DNA from: Nemertoderma westbladi
Taxonomy: Eukaryota; Animalia; Xenacoelomorpha
Assembly (NCBI GenBank): GCA_032718475.1
Contig: JAUCBJ010008563.1
Coordinates: 1-60,297, forward strand
Length of the DNA: 60,297 nt
Direction: 5' to 3'
This document shows positions 4,019 through 30,000 of the stretch, in pieces (positions within the stretch are counted from its first letter, which is position 1; every line of letters starts with the position of its first letter). A model generated the notes under the pieces. The model did not search any database. It had not been told where the DNA came from and saw nothing but the letters and a program-made list of their open reading frames with translations. A program made the translations under genes and the position numbers.

Positions 4019-4084
4019 AGAAACTGTTTTCGTTAACCGTGGCATTAGACCCTTTCTACAGTCATTATCCCTGAAGTTATAATT

Positions 4085-8198: not shown

Positions 8199-8308
8199 AG
8201 AAACTGTTTTCGTTAACCGTGGCATTAGACCCTTTCTACAGTCATTATCCCTGAAGTTATAATTATGGATACGCCACGAACGGCATCATTTCGACTTCTT
8301 TCCCATTT

Positions 8309-9331
8309 TGATATCTGAATGTTAGTTAACACGTGAAATTTATAACTGATATCTGAATGTTAGTTAACACGTGAAATTTATAACTGATATCTGAATGTTA
8401 GTTAACACGTGAAATTTATATCTGATATCTGAATATTAACAGGTGAAATTTATAACTGATATCTGACTGTTAGTTAACACGTGAAATTTATAACTGATGT
8501 CTGAATGTTAACACGTGAAATTTATAACTGATGTCTGACTGTTAGTTAACACGTGAAATTTATAACTGATGTCTGAATGTTAACACGTGAAATTTATAAC
8601 TGATGTCTGAATGTTAGTTAACACGTGAAATGTATAACTGATGTCTGACTGTTAGTTAACACGTGAAATTTATAACTGATGTCTGAATGTTAACACGTGA
8701 AATTTATAACTGATGTCTGAATGTTAGTTAACACGTGAAATTTATAACTGATGTCTGACTGTTAGTTAACATGTGAAATTTATAACTGATGTCTGAATAT
8801 TAACACGTGAAATTTATAACTGATATCTGAATGTTAGTTAACACGTGAAATTTATAACTGATATCTGAATGTTAACACGTGAAATTTTAACTGATATCTG
8901 AATGTTAGTTAACACGTGAAATTTATAACTGATGTCTGAATGTTAGTTAACACGTGAAATTTATAACTGATGTCTGACTGTTAGTTAACACGTGAAATTT
9001 ATAACTGATGTCTGAATGTTAACACGTGAAATTTATAACTGATGTCTGACTGTTAGTTAACACGTGAAATTTATAACTGATGTCTGAATGTTAACACGTG
9101 AAATTTATAACTGATGTCTGACTGTTAGTTAACACGTGAAATTTATAACTGATGTCTGAATGTTAACACGTGAAATTTATAACTGATGTCTGAATGTTAG
9201 TTAACACGTGAAATTTATAACTGATGTCTGACTGTTAGTTAACATGTGAAATTTATAACTGATGTCTGAATATTAACACGTGAAATTTATAACTGATATC
9301 TGAATGTTAGTTAACACGTGAAATTTATAAC
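8309..9331. repeat. 38-bp satellite (TGATRTCTGAMTGTTAGTTAACACGTGAAATTTATAAC) with 34-bp variants, left arm
   Basis: Roughly 28 tandem monomers read directly. Confidence 0.97.
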
Positions 9332-9473
9332 TGATGAATTATTTCACTATAAGGTAGCATTTGTAGTTTAACTTTAACGTAAAAACTTTTGAAAATCCGA
9401 CGTATTTTGATTAAGTTACAGTAATGTAATACGCCTATTCATATTTGTACACATAAAACCCTTAGGTACTCTC

Positions 9474-9545
9474 GTGGCGTAGTGGTCAGATGGTTAAGGC
9501 GTTGGTTACATTACGTAGGTTACGAGTTCGAATCCCAGTCGGGAA
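9474..9545 (+). other. tRNA-derived (SINE-head-like) A-box/B-box cassette inside the 5' LTR; second copy near 23295-23366
   Basis: GTGGTCAGATGGTTAAGGCG resembles a tRNA D-arm/A-box; GAGTTCGAATCC is a B-box; T4 run at about 9553; no complete cloverleaf. Confidence 0.6.
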
Positions 9546-9589
9546 ATTTGTATTTTGGGGCCATTTATTTTCGTGTGGTGCTAATTGAT

Positions 9590-9865
9590 AGGCCAATGAG
9601 AAGCGTACAACGTAGCGAATAATGAGCCAGGCCAATCATAGGGCATAAATTATCTTATTGCTCAAATGTGAGGCAGTGGAAAATTCTGTTAGGATTCCAT
9701 GTCCCAGATTTAGTGTAAGGGCCGGACTGCGTTGAACGATGAGCTGGGCCAATCATAGAGCACGAAGCACTTCATTGCTCAATGGTGAAGCTGTGGAAAA
9801 TTCTGTTTAGTTTCCATGTGCAATTTCTAGTATAAAAGGCCGGTTTGCCTTCGGTTATCATTCTT
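9590..9865 (+). promoter_or_regulatory. Putative LTR Pol II promoter: three GCCAAT boxes, a duplicated ~85-bp block, TATAAAA (9831) and Inr-like TCATTC (about 9858)
   Basis: Motifs read directly; block 9617-9700 is imperfectly repeated at 9734-9819; TATA-to-Inr spacing about 28 nt. Confidence 0.6.
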
Positions 9866-12721
9866 CACCTTCGTTAACCTGATATTATTATCGCTTATTC
9901 TTGTAAAATTTAGTTTATTCGGTTTTTTGTTGAAACTTCGTTTTGATAAATCCTTTGTAAAACTGTAAATATACTGCAATTTCCTGACATGTTTTCTTTT
10001 GGTCCGACTTCGGGACAGCCGAACACCAGGGAGATGGCAGCCTAGACCGTTAGGCCGTAAGCAACGCAGGGAAGGGATGTCCACAACACGCTAGCGCCCA
10101 CATTTGGATTGACCGCGCACCCCCTTTGCCCCTTCGAAATACTCCACTTGCTATGCAGCGCCCGCTTTGTGAGAAGGTAAGACTTTGTTCGACGCCCTTG
10201 CCCGCCGTAAGACCTATAGATCAGGGTAAGCGTGACACCGCACTGGACGCCGCAAATTTAGGATCAAATAATTATATCCAGACACCCCCCCCCCCTTCTT
10301 GTCAGTCCTACGAACCCCTGGGTTAACCTGTACTTCCTACAGGTGCGAACTATTGCCATTCGTCAGTACGCGAGTACACATTAGGTACGGACAGCATACG
10401 TTCCATAATTTAGTGATTCATAGCACTGACTGTTTGGTACCGGTTCGCTTTGTAGAACGTACATTAGTACCCCCCCCCCCCCCTTGTCTGGAGTTAGCTA
10501 TTTGATCAGGCAAGGAGTATTTCTGCTACCGGCACACTGCTTGGCCTAGGGAGGTTTTATTAATATCCTACCGCGCCTTGCCACGTACTGATAGGTATTG
10601 CTGCTAACTACCGCAGCAACAAAGTTCTAGAATTAAATTAGTATACCAGATCAGCTAACGTACGGTAGCGATTAACCCCTATTCTTATCTTACAACCAGA
10701 ATCTGGTATTAGTGCCGATCACGGGTGTAGTTACTAACACTGTGGTTGCCCATTGGGTTGTGGATAGGAAGGAGAGAGCTTTGACGTCATTCGTGAGTAT
10801 AAAGTTCTACAAACGCGACTAGTTTATTTTAGTAGCTAGCGCACGGTATCATTTTAGTCAGAAAATCACTAAAACCTAGTAAAAGGAATTACACGAAATT
10901 GTTTTATTTGTAACACACCCACACACACACGCCCTAAAACATATCGCCCTTAAAGTTCTACTAGCTATAGCGTACTATACATTACTTTAGGTGGAAATTA
11001 TCTGTATTTGTAAAATTAGGATCTGATTTAGTTGCGGCAATAAGGAGTATTTCACTTTCGTTATTAAACTGTTGTTTGTCTGGACAACGGTATTGTTACA
11101 TTTAGGCCTGACCCTTTAGACTGATTTCGTACAGGGGGGTCAGTTATTGTTACATTTAGGTACGACCCCTTTTCGACTGATTTAGGACTGTCAGTGTTGT
11201 TACGCTAGGTCTGTTAACCCACTAGCTCGTATATAAACCATATAAATCACACCGCGGCAAGTTACTGTATTTAGGACTGTCAGTGATAGTTAGGATTCGC
11301 TGCGCGGGGATTGTTTTCCCGTGAGTTTGGTCTGTTACTGTAACTGTACATCTGCCTCACCGGTTAGAGGACAGGTATCCTTCTGTCTAGCACGTAGGCA
11401 TTCGACCCGCTCACGTACATAGAATAGATACAAGGCTCTGTTCCTCGCCAGTAGTCGTTTGTGTACTATATCTGTTTGTTTAGATATCCTGGACTGGGAT
11501 TTGTTGTCAGATACTGTACAAGCCCGTATACATTACTAGAGTCTCATAGTAAGATACATCGTTACTAGGATCTGGTAAGCGGTATACTACTGGACCCTTA
11601 CAGTAGGAAGTATTATTTCCTTTAGTTTAGAATTGTTAGCTATTGAAAGTAGGAGATATTTAAAATCTAAGGTTAGTAAATTTAGTAATTTAGAACGTCC
11701 CCTGCTTCAGTAGGCCTTTAGGGTAGCTAGTACTTTCGTATTTAATATTTGACTAGCTAATAGTTAGTTTGTAGCACTTTGTTTTACGCCGTGTGTGTGC
11801 GGTGTTACTTTTCGGTACTTGAAAAGGTACATAGGGTTTAAAGACCAATTTGTATCGGTACCTAGGAAGATTTTTCGTAAGCGTAGAAGTAAAACTCTCA
11901 CCTTCGACCTTTTCAGGACTCAAGGACTCATTTCTGGACCGCTTCGAGGATTAGACCGCTTTTCGCAAAGTTTGGGAGACAATAAATTCGTCCGCGCCGC
12001 CGAAAAACGGAAAGACCCACGTCCGGTTTGTATTTGGGAATTTGTACGACTGGAAGATCAAAGGAACGTAAGTTTTACGACTCGCGTCGTTCAAACTTAA
12101 GAAAGCACAGTAGTACTCAAAATTTGTGGGTTTCACTGTCTATTTAGTAGTGTTGTTGGTACATATTTTCCCGTTAGACGTTGCTGTTTGGCCTATTGTT
12201 TGTACTTGTTGATCTATATTTTGTTAACGTATACCGTTATCTCACTTATTCGTACAAATTTAGCCGGTAGGCTAGATTACTACTTATTTTATTATATACT
12301 TTGTTAGTTTATTTGTACCGGTTAGGGTATATATATGATATATATATATATCAAGGTAAGTTTGACATTTGTACATTTCGACATTTCGACATTCTGACTT
12401 GTTGATTTATTTGTACCGGTTAGGTAAGTTTGACACTTCAACATTCAGACACTTTGACATTTTATTACCCGTACTTGACGTATATAATAAGACATGAGTG
12501 ACACACCCCATTCGACGAGATACCCACCTACCGACTATGACTCGTGCGACCCGGACAGATCGACAGTAGACGAACCGAGAAGGAGAACCCGAGATTCCAC
12601 CGAGGTCACACCGCTTGCGTCGCCGGTACCCTGAACGGAAATACCGGAAACCGCAACGCGTGGCGACGGCAGGATCGAAGATTTCCTTACCGTCCCGCAG
12701 ACTAGATCGCGGGAACCGGAC

Positions 12722-15700
12722 ATGGTAAGTTCGACTGGAAGCCAGGAGAACGTTATTAGAAGTATAGGAGGACACATGGCCCAGATTACTCGGAACCTCG
12801 GAGAAGGTTTTCGCGTTTTACGCGAGTTAACCGCCCCGATGTCGAGATACGAGTTCTACACCTTACAGGTAAGGATAGAAAGTAGGGTACATGCCTCCGT
12901 AGATAAACTTAAAGGTTTGCACGAACTTGCAGAGTTGCGTGGCGACAACTTTACTCAGGTAAAGATAGTAGATAAATTGGTAAGTGCGAGAGAAAGCCTT
13001 ATCCAGTTTAAGTCGGTGATAAGATTGGCTCAACAGGAGCAGTTCGACCAACTGCTAGGTGAGTCAGTTTCGGACGCGTTGTTACAACCCGAAGAGGAAG
13101 AAGAACTCTACTGCCTGGACGGAAGGTTGGAAACGCTGACCAATTTTCTTCGTAGATGCGGCGTACCGATCGACGAACCGGAAATCGAACCGCGAGGGAC
13201 GACGGAAGTTCTCACTACGGAAGGCTCGCGAGCCTACCAACATCCACCACTGGATAGATCGTTCGTTAGCGTACGGAGCGACGTTGGCAACGTTGGCGAC
13301 GTTAGTAGAACAGCGTCTGGAATTACTCGACAACAACAGGAGGTTGCACGCCGACAACAAGTCGCCGAGGAAGAAGCGCAACTACAGATGGCACAGATCG
13401 CCATCGAAGGAGAAAAACAGCGCAGAGAGGATGTAGCGAAACTTGCGAAACTTCAAGCACAGGCTGAGTTCGAAGCATCAGAGATGCGGAGACTGGAGGA
13501 GGACTTAGCGCGAGAAGTGGCCGCGGCGGCAGCAGCCGACGAGTTAGCACGACAGGCGGCAGCTGACGAGTTAGCACGGAAGAAAGCAGCATCCGACGCT
13601 CGTGCCAAGTTGGAGGCGCGGCAAATAAACGCTCGATTAGCTATACAGGAAGCGGAATTAGCGGCACAACAACAGGACGCAGATCGACGCGAAAGGGAGA
13701 TGCAACTACAGTTCGAATTGAATCGTAGATCGCGCGAGACAGCGAACGCGCAAGCGGACCTCGAACTCGACGCGAGAGATAGATCTATGAGATCGCGAAC
13801 TGGACACGACTTGTCTGCCCTGGATCGTATGGAAGCTCGATATCGCGGAATACAGAAGCGGATCGAGGAAGGAAGCGTGGGAGCGATAGATCGAGGAGAG
13901 GAGTTCGTCGGGGATTACTGTAAACGTTTTCCCCAAGTTATTCCTATGCTCAAACCCACGACTCCGATGGAGCCGGTCTTTGTTACGAAACCTAAGGAAA
14001 TAACGCCTGTGCGTTCGACGCAAGGCAACAGGTTTGTTGTGACGGAATTACCGCAACCTAGGGCGACTTCATCGCCAATCTTAGCAGGTAACGTAACTAG
14101 TCCACCTACAGTAAGTCGTAGTTTACTTGTAGAGAGAGACGAACCTGCGTTTATGACAGTAAAACAGGTGAGTAAACCATTACAAGTTAAACCTGTGACG
14201 TGCTGCGCGAACCCAGTCATTTATAAACCTACAGTAGAGCTTAACTCTGATGTTTTTACTAGACCTCTCACCCAATGTTTATCGAGACCTACGACTTCGT
14301 GGAAGGCTTGCGAGCCTACCGAACAACGGAGGAGGATGGATGTAGGTAGTACCCACAGGATCGAACCGAGTTCAACGAGACCTACGACTACGTGGAAGGC
14401 TTGCGAGCCTACCGAACAACGAGGAGCCGTAGATCCCAGACCACGACGAACTCGACCAAGAATAATACGCCGGACGCGAACCCGCCAACCACCTTATCCG
14501 GACGACAGCGATTCATCCAGTGACTCGGAGTCGACGGAACGGGAAATATTCCGTACTGGAGCGGCAGCGGCAGCGGATTACAAACGGGAGGAACGGTCGA
14601 CGAACCCCTATATCGACAATCCTCCACGAGAAACACCCCAACAGAAACCCACGTTGAAACCAGCGGAAACGATCAGCGCCAAACAGTTCACCGAGATGAC
14701 GGACAGAATAGCTCAACTCGAAGAACGACTCGAAGCGCAACCGTCGGATCGATCACGAACCAGCGTGGAGTTGGAACAACCTAGACAACATCGACCACCG
14801 AGGAGAGAACAGGAGACTAGACGGACTCCGACACATCGAGAGGAAGATCCCGTTAATAATTCCTACCGACGAACAACGCGCGGAAGGGAGCGACTGGACG
14901 ACGCCACCGAACAGGGACGCGGACAGTTGGATTTAGTTAGCGAGATTGCGAAATTCGCGGCTAGACACGGATTACCGGCACAGCAACCGCCGAAGTTCTC
15001 TGGCAACGCGAAACACTGGCGCACACTGGTAGACTACGTAGAGTCCCAGATCGCTAAGTGTGCTTTCACCTCGACGGAGAAGTTTAACTACTTGCTCCAA
15101 GTCCTGTCTGGTGAGCCGAAACGATTAGCGGAAACCTTTATTGGTGTTCCCGATGCCTTTGAGTTGGCGTACGACCGTTTATATTCGATTTACGGAGGTA
15201 ATGTCGCCATGGCTAAATCCATCATTGAAGACCTCTGCAGAGGAGGCAACATTTCGAGACCGATCGACCTTTTACGACTCGCGGACGAAATAAAGAACGC
15301 TATAGGGACTTTACGGTCCATTGGACAACTCGAGTACGCTAACGCACCGACGGTTCTCATTCGAATAATCGGTCGACTTCACCATCGACTACGACGAGAA
15401 TGGCGACGCATCGAGTACCAGCGCGAAGAGGCCGGAGGGTTATTAAAACTCACCGATGTCTATCAACTTATTTCACGGGAGGCCGTGATCGAGACTCGAT
15501 CAAACTATACCGATCACCATATCGCGGCGGAAGGGATAACTGTTTCTGCGCCGAATCGGACTAAACCATTTCCGACGAACGCGAAAGCCGTTACTTACGC
15601 CACCCCTACTGAGACTTCTAAAGTTCTGACGCCTATCGGCACCACGCAGCCACGACAACAGTTGCCGGCGGACTTTGTGGGATGCTCGTACTGCGAGCGG

Positions 15701-18700
15701 AACGGCAGAAACCATAGCGGACATAAACTACGTGGATGTCGCGCTTTTAAAGAGTTGGGGATCGAGGAGAGGAGACTCCAAATCCGATCTCTAGATTCCT
15801 GTTGGAGATGTATGAAGCCAGGACACGTCCGGAAGGATTGCCCGAGCGACGATACATGTTCTCTGTGTGGACGTAACCATGACGCGTTGCTTCACACGAC
15901 CAGTCATACTCCGACCAGACGCTTTCGACGAGAGCATCCCGATAAAGCGGCTAGATGCGACGCGCTTTATAAGGAGCGTGCGCCGCGCGAGATCCGTACC
16001 TTTTATACCGACTGTATGGATCAGTCAGGATCATCGGACGAGGACGAGGAGGAAGACGACACTTTCTACGTGCATGCAGGTGAGGAACAGCCATCGATAA
16101 CGCTCCTCACACAGAACCAATTGAAAGGGTTTAGCGTGATTCCTATAAAGATTACCGGAACCCGAGGGAGCAAGCGTATATACGCCATCTTAGACTCTGC
16201 GTCATCGCATAGCTATGTCGACGAACAAGTAGCCAACGTAGTTACGGACTTGAGTCAAGGTAAGACTGCTCAGTATACTGTAAGCAGCATGCATGGTAAG
16301 AGAGCGATTCCTGTGACAAGAGTAAAACTAACCTTAGACACTCTTCTTTCCAAAGCGGAACACAGCAAGGAGGAGCGCTCATTACTTCCGGTAAGAAATT
16401 TGACCTTTGCAGCTACGAAGGACTTTAGTAACTTGCTCGGCCCTGTGCCAGAGCAATCACCGGAAGATCGTAAGTATTTCCGACACCTTGGAATACCGGA
16501 ATGTCCTGTCAATTATCGTTCAATTGCGATGTTAATTGGGACAGACCAGTTTAACTTACATCAGGTATGGGAGACACGCCCATCTGTTATTACAGCGGGC
16601 AACCCCTACGCATGTAGAACTCCCATAGGTTGGTATACTAGAGCACCAATACGTTCACTAGAGGTAAGTGACCAGGAGGACGACGTTTTGAGTACGTGTA
16701 GTTTATTGACTAACACGATAGATAATTCTCCTTCACACTCCTGTGGTCCAATTGTACGGACGGCACTACGACAGACTTGCGTCACTAACGCAGACGCCAC
16801 CGATACTGACGTAACCGATCTGGACACGACCATACGGACCTCTGACTTACAACTACTTGCAGTAGACCAGGTTGTATTGACTACTGAAGACCTGAGGGTT
16901 GTTGCCGTGGATGACTCGATGAACGAGGATTTTGGAAGGCTTGCGAGCCTACCGAAAAATCCGAAGGTCATTGACCCCACCCACCAGGCTTCGACACCGG
17001 TCGTTGATCTTGGAAGGCTTGCGAGCCTACCGATAGATCAAGAAGTTGTCAAACCGCCGCACGACAATTCGACGCCGACTAGTGACACCGGAAGGCTTGC
17101 GAGCCTACCAGACACATTGACACTAGCCACCGCAGCGGACGAAGACGTGGACGAGGACCATGGCGCAGTGCAAGCAGCGCTTGACCGACTGCTGACTGAA
17201 CGGACCATTCAATGGTTGGAACAGGACTCAGCAGAACCCGGTAGTTACGAGACCGCTATGTCAGAACAGGAAAAACGGTCATTAAATATTATGAGAGATA
17301 CCATTCGCCAGACCGCGAATGGCCACTATGAGGTTGGTATGTTGTGGCGCGATGGACAACCTAAGCTCGTTAACAATTACCCGCTTGCTTTGAGGCGACT
17401 CAAATCAATAAGGCAGCGATTGTTGCGAGACGAGACGGCCCATATGCAATACAATGCACAACTTCAGACGTATCTCCAAAAGGGATACGCCATTAGGATG
17501 TTAAATCCTGAGGTAACCACAGACCAGACATATTACCTGCCACATCATTTTGTTCGACACCCGGACAAACCTGGCAAGGTGCGTGTAGTCAACGACTGCG
17601 CTGCGCTTTACCAAGGGATGTCTATGAATAGCGAACTGATGGACGGGCCGAATATGAATAATTACCTCATGGGAGTCCTAATGCGTTTTAGACAACGCAA
17701 AGTGGCTTTCACCTGTGACGTAGAGGCCATGTTTCACCAGGTTAAGGCTTTGGAGCGGGACAGGGACAGTTTGAGGTTTCTTTGGTATCCGGACGGAAAC
17801 TTACAACTTCCGCCAGAAACTTACCAAATGCAGGTAAGAGTATTTGGAGCCAGGGACAGCCCCAACTGCACCATGTACGCATTAAAGCAGACAGCATTGG
17901 ACAGACGAGACCAATTTGACCCAGAAGTAGTTCGGACCGTGGAACGAGATTTCTACGTGGATGACGGCCTCAAGAGTTGTGACACCTTGGAGCGCGCTAC
18001 AACCGTAGCACACCAACTCCAGGATTGTCTCGCTGAGGGCGGATTTCACCTGACGAAGTTCGCTTCCAACGAACCCGAACTGGTGAACTCATTTGACCCG
18101 ATGGATCGTAGCGGAGGTGATTTAGACTTAGACCTAGAACCTCTGCCGACGACCAAAGTATTAGGACTTAGTTGGGACCCTAACACCGACAATTTTAGGG
18201 TACGTGTAAGGTCCAACGACCAGACTAGACCTCTCACTAAGAGGACTTGCTTATCGACCATGAGTCGATTGTATGACCCATTGTGTTTCATTAGTCCAGT
18301 GATCCTACATGCCAGGATCATACTCCGCAGCATTTGGCAAGCCGGACTGGAATGGGACGATCCCATCCCAGAAAAGTTAGCTGAGCGATGGAGGGACTGG
18401 GAAGCCCAACTGACGTTCCTACAAGACTATACCATACCGAGGGTATACTTTCCTTTGCAAACCACCTTTCCTGCCGATTTAGAGCTTCACAGCTTTAGTG
18501 ACGCTAGCAAGGATGGATTGGGGGTTACCTTATACCTTAGACGACAAGTGACATCGGACAGCTACGATGTATCTCTCGTTACTTCAAGAGCTAGAACAAT
18601 GCCATTGAAGTATATGACTGTACCTCGTGGGGAGCTGCAAGCCGGGACGATATCCACCGATATTGTCAGTCTAGTTCAACGCGAGCTGGAGGCTAACTTG

Positions 18701-21373
18701 AAGGTCACATATTGGACGGATGCGACGTTGGTACTTTGGTACATAAACAACGAAACATTCGAGTTCAAGACTTTCGTAGCCAACAGACGGGCTGAAATAC
18801 TAGACCGGTCGCTCAAACAAGATTGGCGTCACTGTCCAGGGAAGCTGAACCCAGCTGACATCGCGTCACGGGGGATGCAACCACTCGACTTTTGTAAACC
18901 GGACAATAAATCCTTTTGGTTTAGAGGACCCGATTTCCTACAGCGACCATCAGACGAATGGCCACCGTTATTCGACGCGACAACCAACACCATACCAGAG
19001 GGTGCCGAGATAAAACTCGACAAGGTTGTCAAGTCTAAAGCGAAAGCCAACGCCAAGGTCAAGAGGAAAAAAGGACGGACGAAATCTGATGACCTGGACG
19101 CTAGACCTGACATTACGCCAGACGTCTCACCAGACATTCGACCAGACGCTTGTATGAATCCTTCGCCGGATGTTCCGCGGGAGATTTCACCAGACGTTTC
19201 GCCGGATTGTTCACCAGATTACTCGCCAGATTATTCACCAGAAGAGACACCAGATTGTTCTCCGGATTGTTCGCCAGATTGTTTGATGGAACTCTCGACA
19301 GAATGTCTACCGGACGTCTCACCAGACTGTTCGCCAGACATCTCGACAGACTGTCCACCAGACTGTCCACCAGACTTTGAACCAGACTTTCTGATAGAAG
19401 TTACGCTAGACAGACTTTGGGACCGACGACAGGACATTTCGCCGGATGTTCCGCGCTATGTCTCACCAGACGTCTCACCAGACGCTTCACCAGACTGTCT
19501 ACTAGACACTCCATTAGAAGACCCATTGGAGCGGACATTTAGAGACGTACCGAATTTGACTTCTTTGGACGACAGAGATGTGGCCACAGGGATTACACTC
19601 CGCTCGAAGAAGGTACTTGACTTACCTACAGGTAAGCGTGTGACTAAGGTTAGGAAGCTTACAGGCTCACAGGAACACACTGACACTGTAGAGTTGAAAC
19701 CATTACTGCCAGTCGACACATTAGGTGCGGACGGTAAAGGTAAGACCGTAGAGATTGACGTACTTGGGGACTCAGACAAACCTACCGGAAGGCCCGTGGG
19801 CCTACCAAGTCCAGACAAGTATACACACTACGACTACACCTTACCCGATGACGTCACTAACACTTACGTTGACAGGATAGTGAACCTAACTAGATCATGG
19901 ACTGACGCGTGCCGCAAGTTAGCATGGCTCAAACGATTGAGACAATATGCCAGAGGCAAACGCGACTTTCCTAGAAGACTTACCTTAAAGGAAATTGAAC
20001 ACTGTGAAGTTGATATCATCAGACATTATCAATTGCGATATTTCGCACGAGAGTTCACAGCGATCAAACAAGGTAAACAGATTAAGTCTTCACCGATTTT
20101 GAGTTGGAGTCCGATTATTTACCGGGGCTTACTTTGTCACAAGTCCAGACTCCAAAACATCGACTTTGCACTTGACTTTAGGTATCCTATCATCATACCG
20201 CAACACCATGAGTTACAGCGCGCTATGATACTGGACGCACATGTACAACTCAAACACGTAGGTAGACACCACTGTCTATCACACTTACGCTCGAGGTTTG
20301 TACTGATTAGACCTAGTAAGGCACTGAGTTCAGTAACACGGAACTGTATTATTTGTAAGAAGGTGCACGCGAGGATAGGACACCAAGAAATGAGTGAACT
20401 ACCATTAGCTAGATTACAGGCGTTTAGACCCCCTTTCACTGAGACAGGGATAGACTGTTTTGGACCCATAATCGCGAAACGCGGAAGGGTACAGGTAAAA
20501 CGTTGGGGATTGATCTTCACTTGCATGGCCAGCAGAGCTGTCCATATAGAGCGAGTGACAGACTTGTCCACCAATGCCTTTATCCTAGCCTTACGGCGAT
20601 TTATCGCTAGACGTGGATTGGTCAAATCCATATACTGCGACCAAGGGACAAACTTTGTGGGTGCACGGAACGAGATAACCAGAGCTTTGAGAAAATTGGA
20701 CCAAAACCAGATTTCCGAGGAACTACGTCCTCACCGTATTGTTTGGTTTTTCAATACTCCAGACAGTCCGTGGAGAGGCGGCGTTTGGGAAAGGCTGATT
20801 GGCTCAATTAAAACAGCTATGGCTAAAGTCGTACCGACGCAACACATCTTGACAGACGACCAACTGACGACGTTACTAGTAGAAATCGAAGCAATCTTAA
20901 ATACCAGACCGATCGCTTTGATCCCAGACAATAACGACGTACAGTTTGCCTTGACACCAGCGCACCTGCTTATGCAGGCGCCGACGACATTGTTGCCCAT
21001 TTCGGTACCCGTTGATAGTGACGGATACGGCAACAAAGCTTGGAAAATCACTCAATTACTTGCAAATAAATTCTGGGAAATATGGCAGAAATATTATTTG
21101 CCCTCTATTTCGACCAGAACCTCTTGGTATCTAAATACCCGGTGTTTAAGACGTGGTGACCATGTTTTATTGGCTGAAGCTAATCTGAGAAGACGGTTTT
21201 GGCTGACTGGAGTCATTTTGACCACGCACCCTACATCTGGTGTAGTGAGGACAGTTACTGTACGGACTATCGACGGACGTACCGTAGATAGGCCTGTACA
21301 ACGTCTCGTACTCCTTGAGGAGACTAGAAACGAGACGGGAGACTACAAATCTCCACCCAATATTAGTAAATAG
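12722..21373 (+). CDS. BEL/Pao Gag-PR-RT-RNase H-integrase polyprotein (2883 aa)
   Basis: Gag PPKFSGN; three Cys/His knuckles (CSYC..H..C, CWRC..GH..C, CSLC..H..LLH); protease AILDSAS; RT YYLPHH, CDVEAMF, FYVDD; RNase H HSFSDAS, WTDA, NPADIASRG; integrase H-H-CIIC, GIDCFGP, CDQGTNF, GVWERLI. Confidence 0.97.
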   Translation: MVSSTGSQENVIRSIGGHMAQITRNLGEGFRVLRELTAPMSRYEFYTLQVRIESRVHASVDKLKGLHELAELRGDNFTQVKIVDKLVSARESLIQFKSVIRLAQQEQFDQLLGESVSDALLQPEEEEELYCLDGRLETLTNFLRRCGVPIDEPEIEPRGTTEVLTTEGSRAYQHPPLDRSFVSVRSDVGNVGDVSRTASGITRQQQEVARRQQVAEEEAQLQMAQIAIEGEKQRREDVAKLAKLQAQAEFEASEMRRLEEDLAREVAAAAAADELARQAAADELARKKAASDARAKLEARQINARLAIQEAELAAQQQDADRREREMQLQFELNRRSRETANAQADLELDARDRSMRSRTGHDLSALDRMEARYRGIQKRIEEGSVGAIDRGEEFVGDYCKRFPQVIPMLKPTTPMEPVFVTKPKEITPVRSTQGNRFVVTELPQPRATSSPILAGNVTSPPTVSRSLLVERDEPAFMTVKQVSKPLQVKPVTCCANPVIYKPTVELNSDVFTRPLTQCLSRPTTSWKACEPTEQRRRMDVGSTHRIEPSSTRPTTTWKACEPTEQRGAVDPRPRRTRPRIIRRTRTRQPPYPDDSDSSSDSESTEREIFRTGAAAAADYKREERSTNPYIDNPPRETPQQKPTLKPAETISAKQFTEMTDRIAQLEERLEAQPSDRSRTSVELEQPRQHRPPRREQETRRTPTHREEDPVNNSYRRTTRGRERLDDATEQGRGQLDLVSEIAKFAARHGLPAQQPPKFSGNAKHWRTLVDYVESQIAKCAFTSTEKFNYLLQVLSGEPKRLAETFIGVPDAFELAYDRLYSIYGGNVAMAKSIIEDLCRGGNISRPIDLLRLADEIKNAIGTLRSIGQLEYANAPTVLIRIIGRLHHRLRREWRRIEYQREEAGGLLKLTDVYQLISREAVIETRSNYTDHHIAAEGITVSAPNRTKPFPTNAKAVTYATPTETSKVLTPIGTTQPRQQLPADFVGCSYCERNGRNHSGHKLRGCRAFKELGIEERRLQIRSLDSCWRCMKPGHVRKDCPSDDTCSLCGRNHDALLHTTSHTPTRRFRREHPDKAARCDALYKERAPREIRTFYTDCMDQSGSSDEDEEEDDTFYVHAGEEQPSITLLTQNQLKGFSVIPIKITGTRGSKRIYAILDSASSHSYVDEQVANVVTDLSQGKTAQYTVSSMHGKRAIPVTRVKLTLDTLLSKAEHSKEERSLLPVRNLTFAATKDFSNLLGPVPEQSPEDRKYFRHLGIPECPVNYRSIAMLIGTDQFNLHQVWETRPSVITAGNPYACRTPIGWYTRAPIRSLEVSDQEDDVLSTCSLLTNTIDNSPSHSCGPIVRTALRQTCVTNADATDTDVTDLDTTIRTSDLQLLAVDQVVLTTEDLRVVAVDDSMNEDFGRLASLPKNPKVIDPTHQASTPVVDLGRLASLPIDQEVVKPPHDNSTPTSDTGRLASLPDTLTLATAADEDVDEDHGAVQAALDRLLTERTIQWLEQDSAEPGSYETAMSEQEKRSLNIMRDTIRQTANGHYEVGMLWRDGQPKLVNNYPLALRRLKSIRQRLLRDETAHMQYNAQLQTYLQKGYAIRMLNPEVTTDQTYYLPHHFVRHPDKPGKVRVVNDCAALYQGMSMNSELMDGPNMNNYLMGVLMRFRQRKVAFTCDVEAMFHQVKALERDRDSLRFLWYPDGNLQLPPETYQMQVRVFGARDSPNCTMYALKQTALDRRDQFDPEVVRTVERDFYVDDGLKSCDTLERATTVAHQLQDCLAEGGFHLTKFASNEPELVNSFDPMDRSGGDLDLDLEPLPTTKVLGLSWDPNTDNFRVRVRSNDQTRPLTKRTCLSTMSRLYDPLCFISPVILHARIILRSIWQAGLEWDDPIPEKLAERWRDWEAQLTFLQDYTIPRVYFPLQTTFPADLELHSFSDASKDGLGVTLYLRRQVTSDSYDVSLVTSRARTMPLKYMTVPRGELQAGTISTDIVSLVQRELEANLKVTYWTDATLVLWYINNETFEFKTFVANRRAEILDRSLKQDWRHCPGKLNPADIASRGMQPLDFCKPDNKSFWFRGPDFLQRPSDEWPPLFDATTNTIPEGAEIKLDKVVKSKAKANAKVKRKKGRTKSDDLDARPDITPDVSPDIRPDACMNPSPDVPREISPDVSPDCSPDYSPDYSPEETPDCSPDCSPDCLMELSTECLPDVSPDCSPDISTDCPPDCPPDFEPDFLIEVTLDRLWDRRQDISPDVPRYVSPDVSPDASPDCLLDTPLEDPLERTFRDVPNLTSLDDRDVATGITLRSKKVLDLPTGKRVTKVRKLTGSQEHTDTVELKPLLPVDTLGADGKGKTVEIDVLGDSDKPTGRPVGLPSPDKYTHYDYTLPDDVTNTYVDRIVNLTRSWTDACRKLAWLKRLRQYARGKRDFPRRLTLKEIEHCEVDIIRHYQLRYFAREFTAIKQGKQIKSSPILSWSPIIYRGLLCHKSRLQNIDFALDFRYPIIIPQHHELQRAMILDAHVQLKHVGRHHCLSHLRSRFVLIRPSKALSSVTRNCIICKKVHARIGHQEMSELPLARLQAFRPPFTETGIDCFGPIIAKRGRVQVKRWGLIFTCMASRAVHIERVTDLSTNAFILALRRFIARRGLVKSIYCDQGTNFVGARNEITRALRKLDQNQISEELRPHRIVWFFNTPDSPWRGGVWERLIGSIKTAMAKVVPTQHILTDDQLTTLLVEIEAILNTRPIALIPDNNDVQFALTPAHLLMQAPTTLLPISVPVDSDGYGNKAWKITQLLANKFWEIWQKYYLPSISTRTSWYLNTRCLRRGDHVLLAEANLRRRFWLTGVILTTHPTSGVVRTVTVRTIDGRTVDRPVQRLVLLEETRNETGDYKSPPNISK

Positions 21374-22053
21374 ATGTGGGACCTTTGTTGGCCGCCACAT
21401 AGACCTACTGTATTTTAGTTATTTGTATTTGTATTACTGTACGTGCATTTGAAATCCTCTTCACTGTAGATAGAGACAGCGGTGGAATTCCATTGTCTTT
21501 ATACGTGAACATGGAGGGTAGTACCCTTATGTATCACATAGGAGCGGGATTGTGTGTACAGTAGGAATGGAATTCCACTTGGAACCCACAAGTGAGACAT
21601 TTTTCAAAAATTATTAGACAAATCCATTTAGTTGGATTTAAATTTAAGAAAAACGATTCTCCAGTGAAAGCAAATTCTAGAATACAGCTAGAAAAATTAA
21701 AATTGGGGAGGACAAGAGCGGATGGAAGGCTTGCGAGCCTACCGATAAAATTTTTTTTTTTGGGAAAAGAAAATCGGTCTTGTTCTACGTAGTCGTGTCT
21801 ACTATTATTTTGACCAATTAATTCTCGACTGCATTATTTTCTTGGGAAACGTAGTTTGGGAAATTAAAAGGTGAGTATTTTAGACTCACGGCTAGTTTAC
21901 CCGGAATTCGTTTTTTATCGGCACAATTTTGGATTAGGAGCCAGTGCGAAATCACGCGAACCCGAAGTCATTAGGCAAAATGGGTTGGGGTTTAGAGCAG
22001 AGTTGAGCCAAAAGCCGACAAACTCTAAGTCACCTCACATCTAACCTCTGTTT

Positions 22054-22416
22054 GTGCTTCCTCTAGTAGAAACACTATTATCAAAGATCCACGCAGGAAT
22101 AGGAGCACCAGGCGCCGTTCAACCGATATGGGGCCAAAACTTTAACCCGTTTGGAGTGGAGAGTATGGCTAGGAGTACAGCCAAGCTTGCTAAATCCAAG
22201 GCGGATCCAAACGTTACGCGACAGCGATTGGACGCTTATAACAAAACAGCGGAGGAGTTACGCGCGGAGTTCAAAGCGTTGTACCCCTACGATGCGTTAT
22301 GCGAAGCCAGCGACGTTTGCGAGAACCCCGAGCTGATATTAGCGCGTTGCCCAAACCACCAAAGTCTGCGTTACCAAGAAGGCGGTCGTTTCATCTCCCG
22401 TCGTCCCCTTTCCTAG
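22054..22416 (+). CDS. Possible accessory ORF between pol and the 3' LTR, function unknown
   Basis: GC-richer open frame in an AT-rich 3' region; no ATG at its start but preceded by an acceptor-like TGCTTCCTCTAG; an overlapping frame runs 22299-22697. Confidence 0.3.
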   Translation: MLPLVETLLSKIHAGIGAPGAVQPIWGQNFNPFGVESMARSTAKLAKSKADPNVTRQRLDAYNKTAEELRAEFKALYPYDALCEASDVCENPELILARCPNHQSLRYQEGGRFISRRPLS

Positions 22417-23117
22417 CGTTCTGGAACCACCGACAACTCGACGCCGAAGTCCGAGCCCAGTTCGACCTCGACCACCACCCAATCGCAATAGAGGACGTGG
22501 ACGAGCCCGGTCGGCCAAGGAATAGGAAAGCGAGAAGAAAGGATATTATATTCAGATATTATATTTGGATGTTATATTGGATATTTATATTGGATATTTT
22601 ATATTTGGATATTATATTTGGGTATTTATATCGGACGTTGGGTTTGGAGGAGCGAGATATGGAAAGGAAGGCTTGCGAGCCTACCGTTAGCAATTAGTGC
22701 TCAGGAGAAGATATCCAGACCAGCAGGACGAACTATTAGATCGTCAGGAGGACACTATTGAAAGTTATTAGCGCATTGTGTTTATATTATATTTGGACTA
22801 ATTTAATTTGGTGAAGGTTTATTATGTATATTTACAATATATAAAGATTTATCGAAAGAGTTTGATTTATTTGTTTGATTTGTTTGATTTATTTGTTCTG
22901 ATTTGTTTAATTTGCTTATCTTGATAACCGAAAGCCTTTTTTTTGTATTTTAGGCACTAAAGTTAATTCGTAAATTTGTATTTGTATGTACGATCGATTG
23001 TATTTACGCCGTATCTGCAATATTAAGTATGCAATGATTAGATAGTGATTATATTTTATATTTTAGGCCCTACCAGTAAATTTAGAAATAGTTTGTAGAT
23101 ATTTTATATTTGATTGG

Positions 23118-23152
23118 TGAAAACAGTCTTACTTACTGTTTTCATGGAGCGG
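23118..23152 (+). promoter_or_regulatory. 10-bp stem-loop followed by a short purine-rich tract (PPT position)
   Basis: TGAAAACAGT(23118-27)/ACTGTTTTCA(23135-44), then GGAGCGG abutting the 3' LTR. Confidence 0.5.
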
Positions 23153-26045
23153 TGATGAATTATTTCACTATAAGGTAGCATTTGTAGTTTAACTTTAACG
23201 TAAAAACTTTTGAAAATCCGACGTATTTTGATTAAGTTACAGTAATGTAATACGCCTATTCATATTTGTACACATAAAACCCTTAGGTACTCTCGTGGCG
23301 TAGTGGTCAGATGGTTAAGGCGTTGGTTACATTACGTAGGTTACGAGTTCGAATCCCAGTCGGGAAATTTGTATTTTGGGGCCATTTATTTTCGTGTGGT
23401 GCTAATTGATAGGCCAATGAGAAGCGTACAACGTAGCGAATAATGAGCCAGGCCAATCATAGGGCATAAATTATCTTATTGCTCAAATGTGAGGCAGTGG
23501 AAAATTCTGTTAGGATTCCATGTCCCAGATTTAGTGTAAGGGCCGGACTGCGTTGAACGATGAGCTGGGCCAATCATAGAGCACGAAGCACTTCATTGCT
23601 CAATGGTGAAGCTGTGGAAAATTCTGTTTAGTTTCCATGTGCAATTTCTAGTATAAAAGGCCGGTTTGCCTTCGGTTATCATTCTTCACCTTCGTTAACC
23701 TGATATTATTATCGCTTATTCTTGTAAAATTTAGTTTATTCGGTTTCTTGTTGAAACTTCGTTTTGATAAATCCTTTGTAAAACTGTAAATATACTGCAA
23801 TTTCCTGACATGTTTTCTTTTGGTCCGACTTCGGGACAGCCGAACACCAGGGAGATGGCAGCCTAGACCGTTAGGCCGTAAGCAACGCAGGGAAGGGATG
23901 TCCACAACACGCTAGCGCCCACATTTGGATTGACCGCGCACCCCCTTTGCCCCTTCGAAATACTCCACTTGCTATGCAGCGCCCGCTTTGTGAGAAGGTA
24001 AGACTTTGTTCGACGCCCTTGCCCGCCGTAAGACCTATAGATCAGGGTAAGCGTGACACCGCACTGGACGCCGCAAATTTAGGATCAAATAATTATATCC
24101 AGACACCCCCCCCCCCCTTCTTGTCAGTCCTACGAACCCCTGGGTTAACCTGTACTTCCTACAGGTGCGAACTATTGCCATTCGTCAGTACGCGAGTACA
24201 CATTAGGTACGGACAGCATACGTTCCATAATTTAGTGATTCATAGCACTGACTGTTTGGTACCGGTTCGCTTTGTAGAACGTACATTAGTACCCCCCCCC
24301 CCCCCCTTGTCTGGAGTTAGCTATTTGATCAGGCAAGGAGTATTTCTGCTACCGGCACACTGCTTGGCCTAGGGAGGTTTTATTAATATCCTACCGCGCC
24401 TTGCCACGTACTGATAGGTATTGCTGCTAACTACCGCAGCAACAAAGTTCTAGAATTAAATTAGTATACCAGATCAGCTAACGTACGGTAGCGATTAACC
24501 CCTATTCTTATCTTACAACCAGAATCTGGTATTAGTGCCGATCACGGGTGTAGTTACTAACACTGTGGTTGCCCATTGGGTTGTGGATAGGAAGGAGAGA
24601 GCTTTGACGTCATTCGTGAGTATAAAGTTCTACAAACGCGACTAGTTTATTTTAGTAGCTAGCGCACGGTATCATTTTAGTCAGAAAATCACTAAAACCT
24701 AGTAAAAGGAATTACACGAAATTGTTTTATTTGTAACACACCCACACACACACGCCCTAAAACATATCGCCCTTAAAGTTCTACTAGCTATAGCGTACTA
24801 TACATTACTTTAGGTGGAAATTATCTGTATTTGTAAAATTAGGATCTGATTTAGTTGCGGCAATAAGGAGTATTTCACTTTCGTTATTAAACTGTTGTTT
24901 GTCTGGACAACGGTATTGTTACATTTAGGCCTGACCCTTTAGACTGATTTCGTACAGGGGGGTCAGTTATTGTTACATTTAGGTACGACCCCTTTTCGAC
25001 TGATTTAGGACTGTCAGTGTTGTTACGCTAGGTCTGTTAACCCACTAGCTCGTATATAAACCATATAAATCACACCGCGGCAAGTTACTGTATTTAGGAC
25101 TGTCAGTGATAGTTAGGATTCGCTGCGCGGGGATTGTTTTCCCGTGAGTTTGGTCTGTTACTGTAACTGTACATCTGCCTCACCGGTTAGAGGACACGTT
25201 CGTGGGGACTTCGCGCAGCACGTAGTCGGCAAGCCTTGGCATACGGTTCATATAGAGCAAATGGGGCATGTCTAGTTTGGACCCAATATCCCATGCTATA
25301 AATGTATTCATTCGATATACAATCATATGTTAATCCGCTAGGTGGTGTCAAATTGTTATTCTGCAATTTCGTACTTACCAGTGCAACACTGTACAGCAGT
25401 ACCGTACCGGTAGGCCTATGTCATTACTTCTGAGTCTCTAGCGGATCCCCAATTAAATGTCTTAACTTTTCAATTTCGTAAAAGATAGACTTCATGATTC
25501 TCTACAGGCCACCAAAATTTCAGCTCAGGAAAATGAGGCCTTCCCGAGAAATTTAACATTTTCTAAAAACCACATAATCTGTCGTAGCTGACGTCAGACT
25601 GCATGATTTTTCACCAAACTTTACAAACTTTCTAAACTTTCTCTCTACTACTTACCTACTAAGTTTGGTTCAATTCCGAACGAGCGATGCCGAGAAATTC
25701 GCGTTCAAACATTTACCAGACGGACGGACGGACAGACAGACAGACAGACGGACATGCCCCATTTGCCCTATATGAACCGTATGCAAAGGCTCGCCGACTA
25801 CGTGTCTCGCCCCACAGGTATCCTTCTGTCTAGTACGTAGGCATTCGACCCGCTCACGTACATAGAATAGATACAAGGCTCTGTTCCTCGCCAGTAGTCG
25901 TTTGTGTACTATATCTGTTTGTTTAGATATCCTGGACTGGGATTTGTTGTCAGATACTGTACAAGCCCGTATACATTACTAGAGTCTCATAGTAAGATAC
26001 ATCGTTACTAGGATCTGGTAAGCGGTATACTACTGGACCCTTACA
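23153..26045 (+). repeat. 3' LTR (2893 bp including a 620-bp insertion)
   Basis: Matches the 5' LTR; the 622-bp length difference equals the 620-bp insert plus two extra C residues. Confidence 0.95.
25197..25816 (-). mobile_element. Non-autonomous DINE-1/HINE/pearl-like element nested in the 3' LTR
   Basis: Absent from the 5' LTR (empty site GAGG-ACA-GGTATCC); ~54-bp subterminal inverted repeats, GTGGGG/CCCCAC asymmetric ends, (GTCY)n microsatellite on the minus strand, terminal mini-hairpin CACG-TT-CGTG. Confidence 0.8.
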
Positions 26046-29000
26046 ATAACTGATATCTGAATGTTAACACGTGAAATTTTAACTGATATCTGAATGTTAG
26101 TTAACACGTGAAATTTATAACTGATGTCTGAATGTTAGTTAACACGTGAAATTTATAACTGATGTCTGACTGTTAGTTAACACGTGAAATTTATAACTGA
26201 TATCTGAATGTTAGTTAACACGTGAAATTTATAACTGATGTCTGACTGTTAGTTAACACGTGAAATTTATAACTGATATCTGAATGTTAGTTAACACGTG
26301 AAATTTATAACTGATGTCTGAATGTTAGTTAACACGTGAAATTTATAACTGATGTCTGACTGTTAGTTAACACGTGAAATTTATAACTGATATCTGAATG
26401 TTAGTTAACACGTGAAATTTATAACTGATGTCTGACTGTTAGTTAACACGTGAAATTTATAACTGATATCTGAATGTTAGTTAACACGTGAAATTTATAA
26501 CTGATGTCTGACTGTTAGTTAACACGTGAAATTTATAACTGATATCTTATGTTAACACGTGAAATTTATAACTGATGTCTGACTGTTAGTTAACACGTGA
26601 AATTTTAACTGATGTCTGACTGTTAGTTAACACGTGAAATTTATAACTGATATCTTATGTTAACACGTGAAATTTATAACTGATGTCTGACTGTTAGTTA
26701 ACACGTGAAATTTATAACTGATATCTTATGTTAACACGTGAAATTTATAACTGATATCTGAATGTTAGTTAACACGTGAAATTTATAACTGATATCTTAT
26801 GTTAACACGTGAAATTTATAACTGATGTCTGACTGTTAGTTAACACGTGAAATTTTAACTGATGTTTGACTGTTAGTTAACAGGTGAAATTTATAACTGA
26901 TATCTGAATGTTAGTTAACACGTGAAATTTATATCTGATATCTGAATATTAACACGTGAAATTTATAACTGATGTCTGACTGTTAGTTAACAGGTGAAAT
27001 TTATAACTGATATCTGAATGTTAGTTAACACGTGAAATTTATAACTGATGTCTGACTGTTAGTTAACACGTGAAATTTTAACTGATGTCTGACTGTTAGT
27101 TAACACGTGAAATTTATAACTGATATCTTATGTTAATACGTGAAATTTATAACTGATGTCTGACTGTTAGTTAACACGTGAAATTTTAACTGATGTCTGA
27201 CTGTTAGTTAACAGGTGAAATTTATAACTGATATCTGAATGTTAGTTAACACGTGAAATTTATATCTGATATCTGAATGTTAGTTAACACGTGAAATTTA
27301 TAACTGATGTCTGACTGTTAGTTAACAGGTGAAATTTATAACTGATATCTGAATGTTAGTTAACACGTGAAATTTATAACTGATGTCTGACTGTTAGTTA
27401 ACACGTGAAATTTATAACTGATATCTGAATGTTAGTTAACACGTGAAATTTATAACTGATGTCTGACTGTTAGTTAACACGTGAAATTTATAACTGATGT
27501 CTGACTGTTAGTTAACAGGTGAAATTTATAACTGATATCTGAATGTTAGTTAACACGTGAAATTTATAACTGATGTCTGACTGTTAGTTAACACGTGAAA
27601 TTTATAACTGATATCTTATGTTAACACGTGAAATTTATAACTGATGTCTGACTGTTAGTTAACACGTGAAATTTTAACTGATGTCTGACTGTTAGTTAAC
27701 ACGTGAAATTTATAACTGATATCTTATGTTAACACGTGAAATTTATAACTGATGTCTGACTGTTAGTTAACACGTGAAATTTATAACTGATATCTTATGT
27801 TAACACGTGAAATTTATAACTGATATCTGAATGTTAGTTAACACGTGAAATTTATAACTGATATCTTATGTTAACACGTGAAATTTATAACTGATGTCTG
27901 ACTGTTAGTTAACACGTGAAATTTTAACTGATGTTTGACTGTTAGTTAACAGGTGAAATTTATAACTGATATCTGAATGTTAGTTAACACGTGAAATTTA
28001 TATCTGATATCTGAATATTAACACGTGAAATTTATAACTGATGTCTGACTGTTAGTTAACAGGTGAAATTTATAACTGATATCTGAATGTTAGTTAACAC
28101 GTGAAATTTATAACTGATGTCTGACTGTTAGTTAACACGTGAAATTTATAACTGATATCTGAATGTTAGTTAACACGTGAAATTTATAACTGATATCTGA
28201 ATGTTAACACGTGAAATTTATAACTGATGTCTGACTGTTAGTTAACACGTGAAATTTATAACTGATATCTGAATGTTAGTTAACACGTGAAATTTATAAC
28301 TGATGTCTGACTGTTAGTTAACACGTGAAATTTATAACTGATATCTGAATGTTAGTTAACACGTGAAATTTATAACTGATGTCTGACTGTTAGTTAACAC
28401 GTGAAATTTATAACTGATATCTGAATGTTAGTTAACACGTGAAATTTATAACTGATATCTGAATGTTAGTTAACACGTGAAATTTATAACTGATGTCTGA
28501 CTGTTAGTTAACACGTGAAATTTATAACTGATATCTGAATGTTAGTTAACACGTGAAATTTATAACTGATGTCTGACTGTTAGTTAACACGTGAAATTTA
28601 TAACTGATATCTGAATGTTAGTTAACACGTGAAATTTATAACTGATGTCTGACTGTTAGTTAACACGTGAAATTTATAACTGATATCTGACTGTTAGTTA
28701 ACACGTGAAATTTATAACTGATGTCTGACTGTTAGTTAACACGTGAAATTTATAACTGATGTCTGACTGTTAGTTAACACGTGAAATTTATAACTGATGT
28801 CTGACTGTTAGTTAACACGTGAAATTTATAACTGATGTCTGACTGTTAGTTAACACGTGAAATTTATAACTGATGTCTGACTGTTAGTTAACACGTGAAA
28901 TTTATAACTGATGTCTGACTGTTAGTTAACACGTGAAATTTATAACTGATGTCTGACTGTTAGTTAACACGTGAAATTTATAACTGATGTCTGACTGTTA

Positions 29001-29666
29001 GTTAACACGTGAAATTTATAACTGATATCTGAATGTTAACACGTGAAATTTATAACTGATGTCTGACTGTTAGTTAACACGTGAAATTTATAACTGATGT
29101 CTGACTGTTAGTTAACACGTGAAATTTATAACTGATGTCTGACTGTTAGTTAACACGTGAAATTTATAACTGATGTCTGACTGTTAGTTAACACGTGAAA
29201 TTTATAACTGATGTCTGACTGTTAGTTAACACGTGAAATTTATAACTGATATCTGAATGTTAGTTAACACGTGAAATTTATAACTGATATCTGACTGTTA
29301 GTTAACACGTGAAATTTATAACTGATGTCTGACTGTTAGTTAACACGTGAAATTTATAACTGATATCTGAATGTTAGTTAACACGTGAAATTTATAACTG
29401 ATATCTGAATGTTAGTTAACACGTGAAATTTATAACTGATGTCTGACTGTTAGTTAACACGTGAAATTTATAACTGATGTCTGACTGTTAGTTAACACGT
29501 GAAATTTATAACTGATGTCTGACTGTTAGTTAACACGTGAAATTTATAACTGATGTCTGACTGTTAGTAACACGTGAAATTTATAACTGATGTCTGACTG
29601 TTAGTTAACACGTGAAATTTATAACTGATGTCTGACTGTATAACACGTGAAATTTATAACTGATGT
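26046..29666. repeat. 38-bp satellite, right arm
   Basis: Roughly 95 monomers of the same unit as 8309-9331, including 33-34-bp variants and local higher-order duplication. Confidence 0.97.
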
Positions 29667-30000
29667 AAAATCGCCATCAACTTTACGTGAAATTCAAAAC
29701 TTTTTCACAACACATTTTTTGCCCATTGAAATAAATGATTGAAAAGTAGGTTTTGCTAAGGCGGATATGGGCCACCGCAAAAATATGAAAAAAATAAAAC
29801 ATAATAAACTCTTTCATTTTTTTATAATTAGCACAATTCAACCATCGCATTACTTGCGGTGTTTAATATTAAAAAACGCAGTCCTATGACCTTAGAATAT
29901 CAATATCTCAACATTTGCGGTAATTATCTGAACACGTTGTCTAACTGCTCAACTAGAAGCACATCATCAGTTAGGTTGCTAATGTTATTTCAGTACATTG

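Follow-up and report, generated by a model that had tools for sequence, protein, structure and literature searches.

Palindromes repeated within long terminal repeat (LTR) retrotransposons, self-complementary dimer hairpins and dispersed packaging signals are already known, each separately from the others. In Sireviruses, plant elements of the Ty1/copia type, 8–32 near-identical, hairpin-capable short palindromes are repeated in one element, clustered in the LTR and before env and sharing a CGG-CCG core, and are read as DNA cis-elements or as hot spots of small interfering RNA (PMC2829016, PMC4728375). Pseudo-palindromic hairpins that can form kissing complexes or extended duplexes include DIS, SL2 and SL3 of human immunodeficiency virus type 1 (HIV-1), DIS-1, DIS-2, SL-C and SL-D of Moloney murine leukaemia virus (MoMuLV), and PAL1 and PAL2 of Ty1 (PMC7599994, PMC6844567, PMC4974528). 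Among these, the self-complementary HIV-1 DIS and MoMuLV DIS-1/2 (PMC7599994) and Ty1 PAL1/PAL2 (PMC6844567) are described as driving dimerisation. Single-stranded RNA viruses (the review in question treats MS2, picornaviruses and hepatitis B virus) carry many stem-loops genome-wide, also in coding regions, that serve as dispersed packaging signals (PMC6281560). For BEL/Pao elements (Belpaoviridae), the International Committee on Taxonomy of Viruses (ICTV) states that "replication is poorly understood" (PMC8742986). Here we describe a BEL element of Nemertoderma westbladi, found on contig JAUCBJ010008563.1 (positions 1–60,297, 60,297 bases in all, hereafter the window), through which nine near-exact copies of a 20-nucleotide hairpin are dispersed. 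RNA selection, pairing and export are little understood in BEL/Pao, and the nine-copy motif offers a probe for an RNA-handling protein, be it Gag, a Rev-like accessory protein or a host factor.

Nine hairpin copies in one element

The element occupies positions 9332–26045 (16,714 bp) and is inserted in an array of a 34/38-bp satellite. The original prediction listed nine copies of the motif, and all nine were recovered where it had placed them: seven exact 20-mers, a CGCG-loop variant at 13219, and a variant at 19787 with a C-G closing pair and a CGTG loop. All lie on the forward strand, which is the sense strand of the element. Copy 1 (13219–13238) is read as EGSRAY and falls in the N-terminal region of gag, where no homologues are found. 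Copies 2 (14301–14320) and 3 (14394–14413), both read as WKACEPT, are the first and second units of a 93-bp local duplication with one flank still common to both. Copies 4 (16934–16953), 5 (17012–17031) and 6 (17090–17109) are read as GRLASLP and form a 78-bp triplication in a linker upstream of the reverse transcriptase (RT) domain, while copy 7 (19787–19806), read as GRPVGLP, lies at the end of a ∼250-codon insertion between RNase H and integrase. Copies 8 (21724–21743) and 9 (22666–22685) are exact 20-mers 3' of the gag-pol stop. The translations agree with the claim that the motif is used in three reading frames and twice lies after the stop codon. Since two of the clusters are local duplications, the nine copies amount to six independent sites.

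The 20-mer recurs every 1–2.7 kb through the internal region, and the leader has no copy. No motif match was seen in 100 dinucleotide shuffles, and the internal region would be expected to contain ∼7e-5 copies of the 14-base dyad. The heptamers GGAAGGC and GCCTACC each occur nine times in the window, every time within a hairpin copy, and the sense strand of the element has nine hairpins with a YGYG loop versus 0.7 expected. A covariance model built from the nine copies and run without filters on the whole window returned the nine at E 4e-9 to 3e-7, together with their antisense shadows, and nothing elsewhere below E 1.3. The hairpin is therefore absent from the LTRs and the rest of the window, as had been claimed; the 43.6 kb outside the element contain no motif.

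Coding copies had also been placed in linkers outside conserved domains, and this is borne out by the homologues, which lack these stretches or are unaligned there. None of the motif-encoded peptides is spanned by the alignment of more than 8 of 133 homologues, whereas seven control positions are spanned by 106–133, so the coding copies lie in lineage-specific linkers.

Constancy and turnover of the motif

Between the six sites, the 30-nt flanks agree at 3–14 of 30 positions, which is the background level. Recent duplication that includes the flanks, named at the outset as an explanation that would refute the idea, does not explain the copies, except for the 14301/14394 pair. The 78-bp triplet allows the motif and its surroundings to be compared directly: none of the 20 motif columns is variable, versus 49 of 58 in the flanks (p 5e-12), and at third codon positions the counts are 0/6 and 17/20, respectively (p 4e-4). 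Together with the three frames and the two non-coding copies, these counts support selection on the nucleic acid and not on the peptide, and this well-supported conclusion is the best-supported part of the analysis. Selection at the peptide level was rejected in view of the three frames and the invariant third positions.

It is very improbable that the copies have no function and that template switching at a self-complementary hot spot has spread them and kept them alike in linkers that tolerate them. Such spread would agree with the location of five of the nine copies in local tandem duplications, with the differences in copy number and place among family members, and with the lack of the motif in relatives. 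However, homogenisation would need to end exactly at 20 bases, as the flanks have decayed to 31–48% identity; copy 7 differs at four positions, all of them central, with both arms intact; and genomic copies of the family have fewer variants in the motif than in the flanks. The triplet fits this explanation badly, and the comparison of its columns has already largely refuted it.

In public DNA contigs, the family is present at very high copy number (six of the seven listed runs, four studies), and the best of these runs may represent the source sample. We considered positions 16860–17180 in the three runs with cover, representing two samples, and counted variants at ≥3%; run X5 has no contig in this interval. 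There are 28 variable positions, one among 60 in the motifs and 27 among 261 outside (two-sided p 0.039, one-sided 0.019), in a test that is biased toward the motif, as contigs from other motif copies raise the depth and dilute variants. At the one variable motif position, 17031, the outer G-C pair becomes G.U on the sense strand. The loose end of a single contig carries a copy with two changes, both giving G.U on the sense strand, and one of them yields U.G, which is intermediate between the closing pairs U-A and C-G. None of the 40 listed differences (827 in all) falls in a motif copy, which is uninformative with 0.6 expected.

Some joints with a side of 21–22 letters come from contigs that have two motif copies around non-aligning sequence. 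Other family members have, for example, an extra copy between 22528 and 22599 (two equal-depth joints in run X5 and one, of depth 5036, in X2) and an extra CGCG-type copy 37 letters before 22377. We read these observations as gain and loss of copies while the 20 bases remain fixed: a cis signal enters coding linkers in any frame, and its copy number turns over within the family. Copy gain in linkers may also be a route by which an LTR element grows to 16.7 kb.

To date, the reach of the motif is one family in one organism. In metagenome contigs, we confirmed 542 BEL-encoding stretches and kept 78 loci with 36–48% identity, 59 of them of at least 6 kb. None of the 78 contains the dyad within two mismatches, the best covariance-model hit has E 1.6, and no 12-mer or dyad has more than two independent copies, versus 4 and 6 here. 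YGYG hairpins number 34 on the sense and 29 on the antisense strand of these loci, with 19–28 in Markov controls and a maximum of three per locus. The absence from these distant loci makes the motif look family-specific. Separately, four of the metagenome contigs (L114, L115, L116, and L143) consist of head-to-tail BEL repeats with a period of 6.1–7.8 kb, which are either tandem elements or assembly artefacts.

The motif-encoded peptides were not found in the 120 homologues listed out of 831; among relatives with shorter proteins, none of 13 matches was close over the linker; and viral contigs yielded no BEL relatives. A degenerate pattern matched 68 loci in IMG/VR and the exact 20-mer matched two loci in prokaryote genomes, all single-copy, and we read both as chance. 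Rfam gave no match at E ≤ 1 in 9300–26100. The histone stem-loop, the iron-responsive element and the selenocysteine insertion sequence (SECIS), whose shapes do not fit, were rejected, Rfam likewise giving no match. The exact 20-mer was found in no paper of the open-access full-text library searched; a supplement or a Repbase family entry may still describe it. Within the same scope, we found neither a dispersed signal of this sort for BEL/Pao, in line with the original prediction, nor a dispersed packaging-signal system for any LTR retrotransposon. In the passages searched of the BEL/Pao survey (PMC3118150), the terms hairpin, stem and repeat motif do not occur.

Folding and possible roles of the motif

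All nine copies are predicted to fold locally as had been proposed, with 2 bp, an A.A mismatch, 5 bp and a 4-nt loop. The local pair probability (40-nt span) is 0.90–1.0 in eight copies and 0.36 in one. The loop is always YGYG, with an invariant G at loop positions 2 and 4. As YGYG self-pairs in antiparallel orientation, a pair of copies can rearrange to form a duplex of 20 bp. For main-type copies, the predicted duplex with its two A.A mismatches has −30.7 kcal/mol versus −15.2 kcal/mol for two hairpins, and the antisense duplex has −22.9 kcal/mol. When all 256 loops on the common stem are ranked by self-pairing, the natural loops take ranks 4, 15, and 20, and their antisense forms 4, 64, and 51. 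In longer folds, pairing between copies is predicted with probability 1.0 for 14301–14394 and 17012–17090.

The motif probably acts as RNA. The A.A mismatch is fixed in all nine copies, a perfect palindrome being never seen, and this, together with the absence from the promoter-bearing LTR, leans to RNA. Moreover, the departures from perfect symmetry (the UGCG and CGUG loops, position 17031, and the contig with two changes) all remain compatible with G.U pairing in the sense strand; they are few, and they are also common transitions.

Action as DNA is unlikely. The motif would then be a double-stranded site with 7-bp inverted arms and a 6-bp centre, bound by a dimeric protein of the host or the element that keeps the provirus transcribed or unsilenced, in the manner of the palindromic motifs of Sireviruses. 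The dyad symmetry fits such a site, and the near-invariant arms and centre fit a protein that reads sequence. The 8–32 palindromic copies of Sireviruses, which are read as DNA cis-elements, often have an asymmetric centre (PMC2829016). The internal region is not CpG-depleted, the observed/expected ratio being 1.20 versus 0.79 outside the element. The same orientation of all copies may be a by-product of copying: it would also be expected from template switching, and this keeps a DNA site under consideration. On the other hand, both the 2.27-kb LTR and the surroundings of the TATA box, where Sirevirus motifs cluster, are free of copies, and the A.A asymmetry is retained everywhere. Finally, a symmetric DNA binder leaves unexplained why the departures from symmetry permit G.U pairs in the sense orientation and give mismatches on the opposite strand, although the numbers are small.

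As to what an RNA hairpin would do, we tentatively put first the possibility that the 20-mer on the full-length transcript is a dispersed signal for Gag binding, pairing and packaging. Each copy would form the predicted hairpin of 5 bp, and Gag would use its CCHC knuckles to read the invariant guanines 2 and 4 of the YGYG loop. Gag might then anneal copies, either intramolecularly or across the two RNAs that share a particle, and annealing could compact and package an oversized RNA of at least ∼13 kb. New copies would arise when the reverse transcriptase switches templates, and they would persist wherever seven arbitrary residues do no harm to the protein. The candidate binder of the loops is the nucleocapsid region of Gag (15680–15910, forward strand), in which one knuckle scores as zf-CCHC and three knuckle-like motifs are seen by eye; its closest solved matches are retroviral nucleocapsids, all weak (E 0.017 or more). 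In HIV-1, the guanines bound by nucleocapsid protein are G9 and G11, which stand at positions 2 and 4 of the loop G8-G9-U10-G11 (PMC7599994). Pairing with a trans-acting small RNA was also considered and rejected, as the loop variant at 13219 would be expected to mismatch.

Several observations count against a packaging role or weaken the case for a conserved hairpin. The known packaging and dimer signals of retroelements are in the 5' leader, while the leader and LTR here have no copy, and the 78 distant loci imply that BEL elements in general package without the motif. In HIV-1, replacement of the GGAG loop hardly changed packaging, and MoMuLV nucleocapsid failed to bind isolated hairpins, both as reported in PMC7599994; hence, the nucleocapsid analogy is a lead only. 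The hairpin of the copy at 22666 competes with other pairings in longer folds. Six of the seven stem pairs never vary and so are uninformative on pairing, and the loops differ by C-to-T changes at CpG, which is the most frequent kind of mutation. The original prediction also stressed a compensatory base pair. The C-G closing pair is indeed present at 19787, but it is not significant, and it proves little because it concerns one cell only and is matched in 60 of 500 shuffles.

A stronger form of the packaging reading is doubtful: a genome-long code in which one 20-nt hairpin, placed in every tolerant linker and in any frame, would nucleate Gag and, by the self-pairing of its YGYG loop, zip or fold both genomic RNAs over their whole length. 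Were it true, the code would let a genome far above the usual size of the family fit the particle, and it would be the first dispersed packaging-signal system of a retrotransposon and the first such cis RNA signal in BEL/Pao.

Export of unspliced RNA from LTR elements has HIV Rev and the Rev response element (RRE) as its comparison system. It is rather unlikely that the hairpins here are an export, anti-splicing or transport signal of this kind, at which the unspliced RNA would be covered by a Rev- or CERV-like spliced protein or by an RNA-binding protein of the host. In the accessory protein, an exon located 3' of pol would follow the N-terminus of Gag, and the destination of the RNA would be outside the nucleus or in the germ line. 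With a rough weight matrix, 17 strong donor-like sites were counted on the sense strand, and of the four best acceptor-like sites three (22954, 22067, and 22417) fall 3' of pol. Open frames of 116 and 92 codons follow the acceptors at 22067 and 22417, respectively, and both share their phase with the gag donor at 13059; the chance of such frames is ∼0.006–0.009 and 0.017 per frame. The first hairpin is 160 nt 3' of that donor, eight of the nine copies precede acceptor 22067, and all nine precede acceptor 22954. In the Caenorhabditis elegans element Cer1, the spliced product CERV shares the Gag N-terminus and is required for the export of genomic RNA (PMC10309623), and a counterpart may exist here. 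Egl-BicD transport counts two stem-loops per transcript (PMC13186709).

The region 21871–22697 is a possible spliced accessory gene, judged from its sequence. Putative exon A (22067–22416, forward strand) has a branch point, a pyrimidine tract, a TAG acceptor, and 116 open codons, and putative exon B (22417–22697, forward strand), opened by the second acceptor in the same phase, has 92 open codons with an Arg/Lys-rich patch. A strong donor at 21871 lies upstream of these same-phase acceptors. Against this reading, a search of 478 candidates gave no homologue of exon A, and exon A has neither a Pfam family nor a match in the ESM Atlas, with a low recognition score (1696); its single-sequence fold (predicted local distance difference test score, pLDDT, 43) is uninformative. 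In two runs, the depth over the exon A region falls to between a third and a half of that in the adjoining sequence, and loose ends occur there, so the region seems to be variable within the family. In addition, copy 9 and the extra copies of other family members (e.g., at 22528–22599) are 3' of both acceptors 22067 and 22417.

The host element and comparison with described systems

The 5' LTR (9332–11602, forward strand, 2,271 bp) begins with TG, ends with CA, and is preceded by the target-site duplication ATAAC at 9327–9331. The 3' LTR (23153–26045, forward strand) has the same TG...CA ends and is followed by ATAAC at 26046–26050. Neither has a hairpin copy. The two are 99.85% identical over 2,044 bp and 99.6% over 232 bp, the 3' LTR being split by a ∼617-bp insertion. 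This insertion (25197–25813), seen in the 3' LTR only, has 54-nt inverted arms (25219–25272 and 25751–25804) and an internal microsatellite; it resembles a miniature inverted-repeat transposable element and is younger than the LTR element. The promoter signals of the 5' LTR are CCAAT boxes at 9593, 9632, and 9749 and a TATA box at 9831; a start near the latter would give a genomic RNA of at least ∼13 kb. A 113-bp promoter block with CCAAT boxes is duplicated in the LTR at 9622–9851 with 75% identity.

There is no tRNA-type TGG directly 3' of the 5' LTR, and just a short purine-rich run upstream of the 3' LTR. The first 10 bases after the 5' LTR (11603–11612) are the exact complement of an LTR 10-mer at 10331–10340 (also 24153–24162), and this 10-mer sits in the 3'-terminal part of an intron predicted within the LTR (donor at 10177, acceptor at 10343). 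This complementarity possibly reflects self-priming, or else chance (∼0.002 for a 2.3-kb LTR, by our own estimate).

The single gag-pol frame (12635–21373, forward strand) has 2,912 codons from stop to stop, with the first ATG at 12722. Another in-frame ATG lies at 12494, with a stop codon (12632–12634) between it and the long frame; gag in this copy may be interrupted near its start, or it may start at ATG 12722. The Pfam domains are DUF1759, CCHC knuckles, RT, Peptidase_A17, Integrase_H2C2, and DUF5641; RVT_1 and rve score under their curated cut-offs. The protease has no Pfam match, and an ILDSAS motif is found at the expected place. The N-terminal 422 residues of Gag gave no match among 1.84 billion representatives, and this region contains a long Ala/Glu/Gln/Arg-rich stretch (13330–13780), probably a coiled coil. 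The ∼250-codon insertion in the gap between RNase H and integrase (19100–19520) has many SPD(C/V/Y) repeats and is absent in 30 aligned homologues.

The gag-pol protein has 831 homologues at E ≤ 1e-20, the best with 46% identity over RT–RNase H, and the named best homologues are mostly from marine invertebrates. The following features of Belpaoviridae are present: paired LTRs with a target-site duplication, Gag followed by RT, RNase H and integrase, and BEL-type domains. ICTV gives a genome of 4.2–10 kb and LTRs of 0.2–1.2 kb for this family (PMC8742986). Both described ranges are exceeded here (16,714 bp and 2,271 bp, respectively), and the protein is longer than the median of 1,945 residues among thirty of the best homologues; hence, the element is unusually large.

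Elsewhere in the window, an intact frame of 1,112 codons (4049–7387) looks Penelope-type by eye, with an RT-like middle and a GIY-YIG-like end; Pfam has no match to it. Satellites with 34/38-bp, 29-bp, and 43-bp units occupy 8200–9331, 26046–35000, 42750–45500, and 53040–55500.

In comparison with known systems, what we could not find in the open-access full-text literature searched is a near-exact hairpin running through gag-pol in all frames, with no copy in the LTR or leader, and in a BEL/Pao element. As regards CERV, the main text of the paper on it does not contain the terms cis-acting, stem-loop or response element (PMC10309623), and the accessory exons here are predicted ones with no homology. 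SPRE of endogenous retroviruses resembles the hairpin in being a short, conserved post-transcriptional RNA element of retroelements; its abstract speaks of three motifs in many endogenous retrovirus families and of no repeated hairpin, whereas the hairpin here is repeated through one element (PMC8579622). As regards Sireviruses, the likeness is in the repetition of near-identical palindromes. The differences are that the element here belongs to BEL/Pao, its LTR has no copy, seven copies are inside gag-pol in three frames, and the CGG-CCG core is absent. The predicted exchange of hairpins into a duplex is shared with the retroviral and Ty1 signals, and the G positions are those of the CCHC-bound SL2 tetraloop of HIV-1, with binding here presumed by analogy (PMC7599994). 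Those signals are one to a few distinct hairpins restricted to the 5' leader, while here one 20-mer is repeated, with its first copy (13219) already in gag. The distribution along the genome, coding regions included, resembles that of the packaging signals of single-stranded RNA viruses, yet those are degenerate and share a sparse motif (PMC6281560), whereas the copies in the Nemertoderma element are near-exact.

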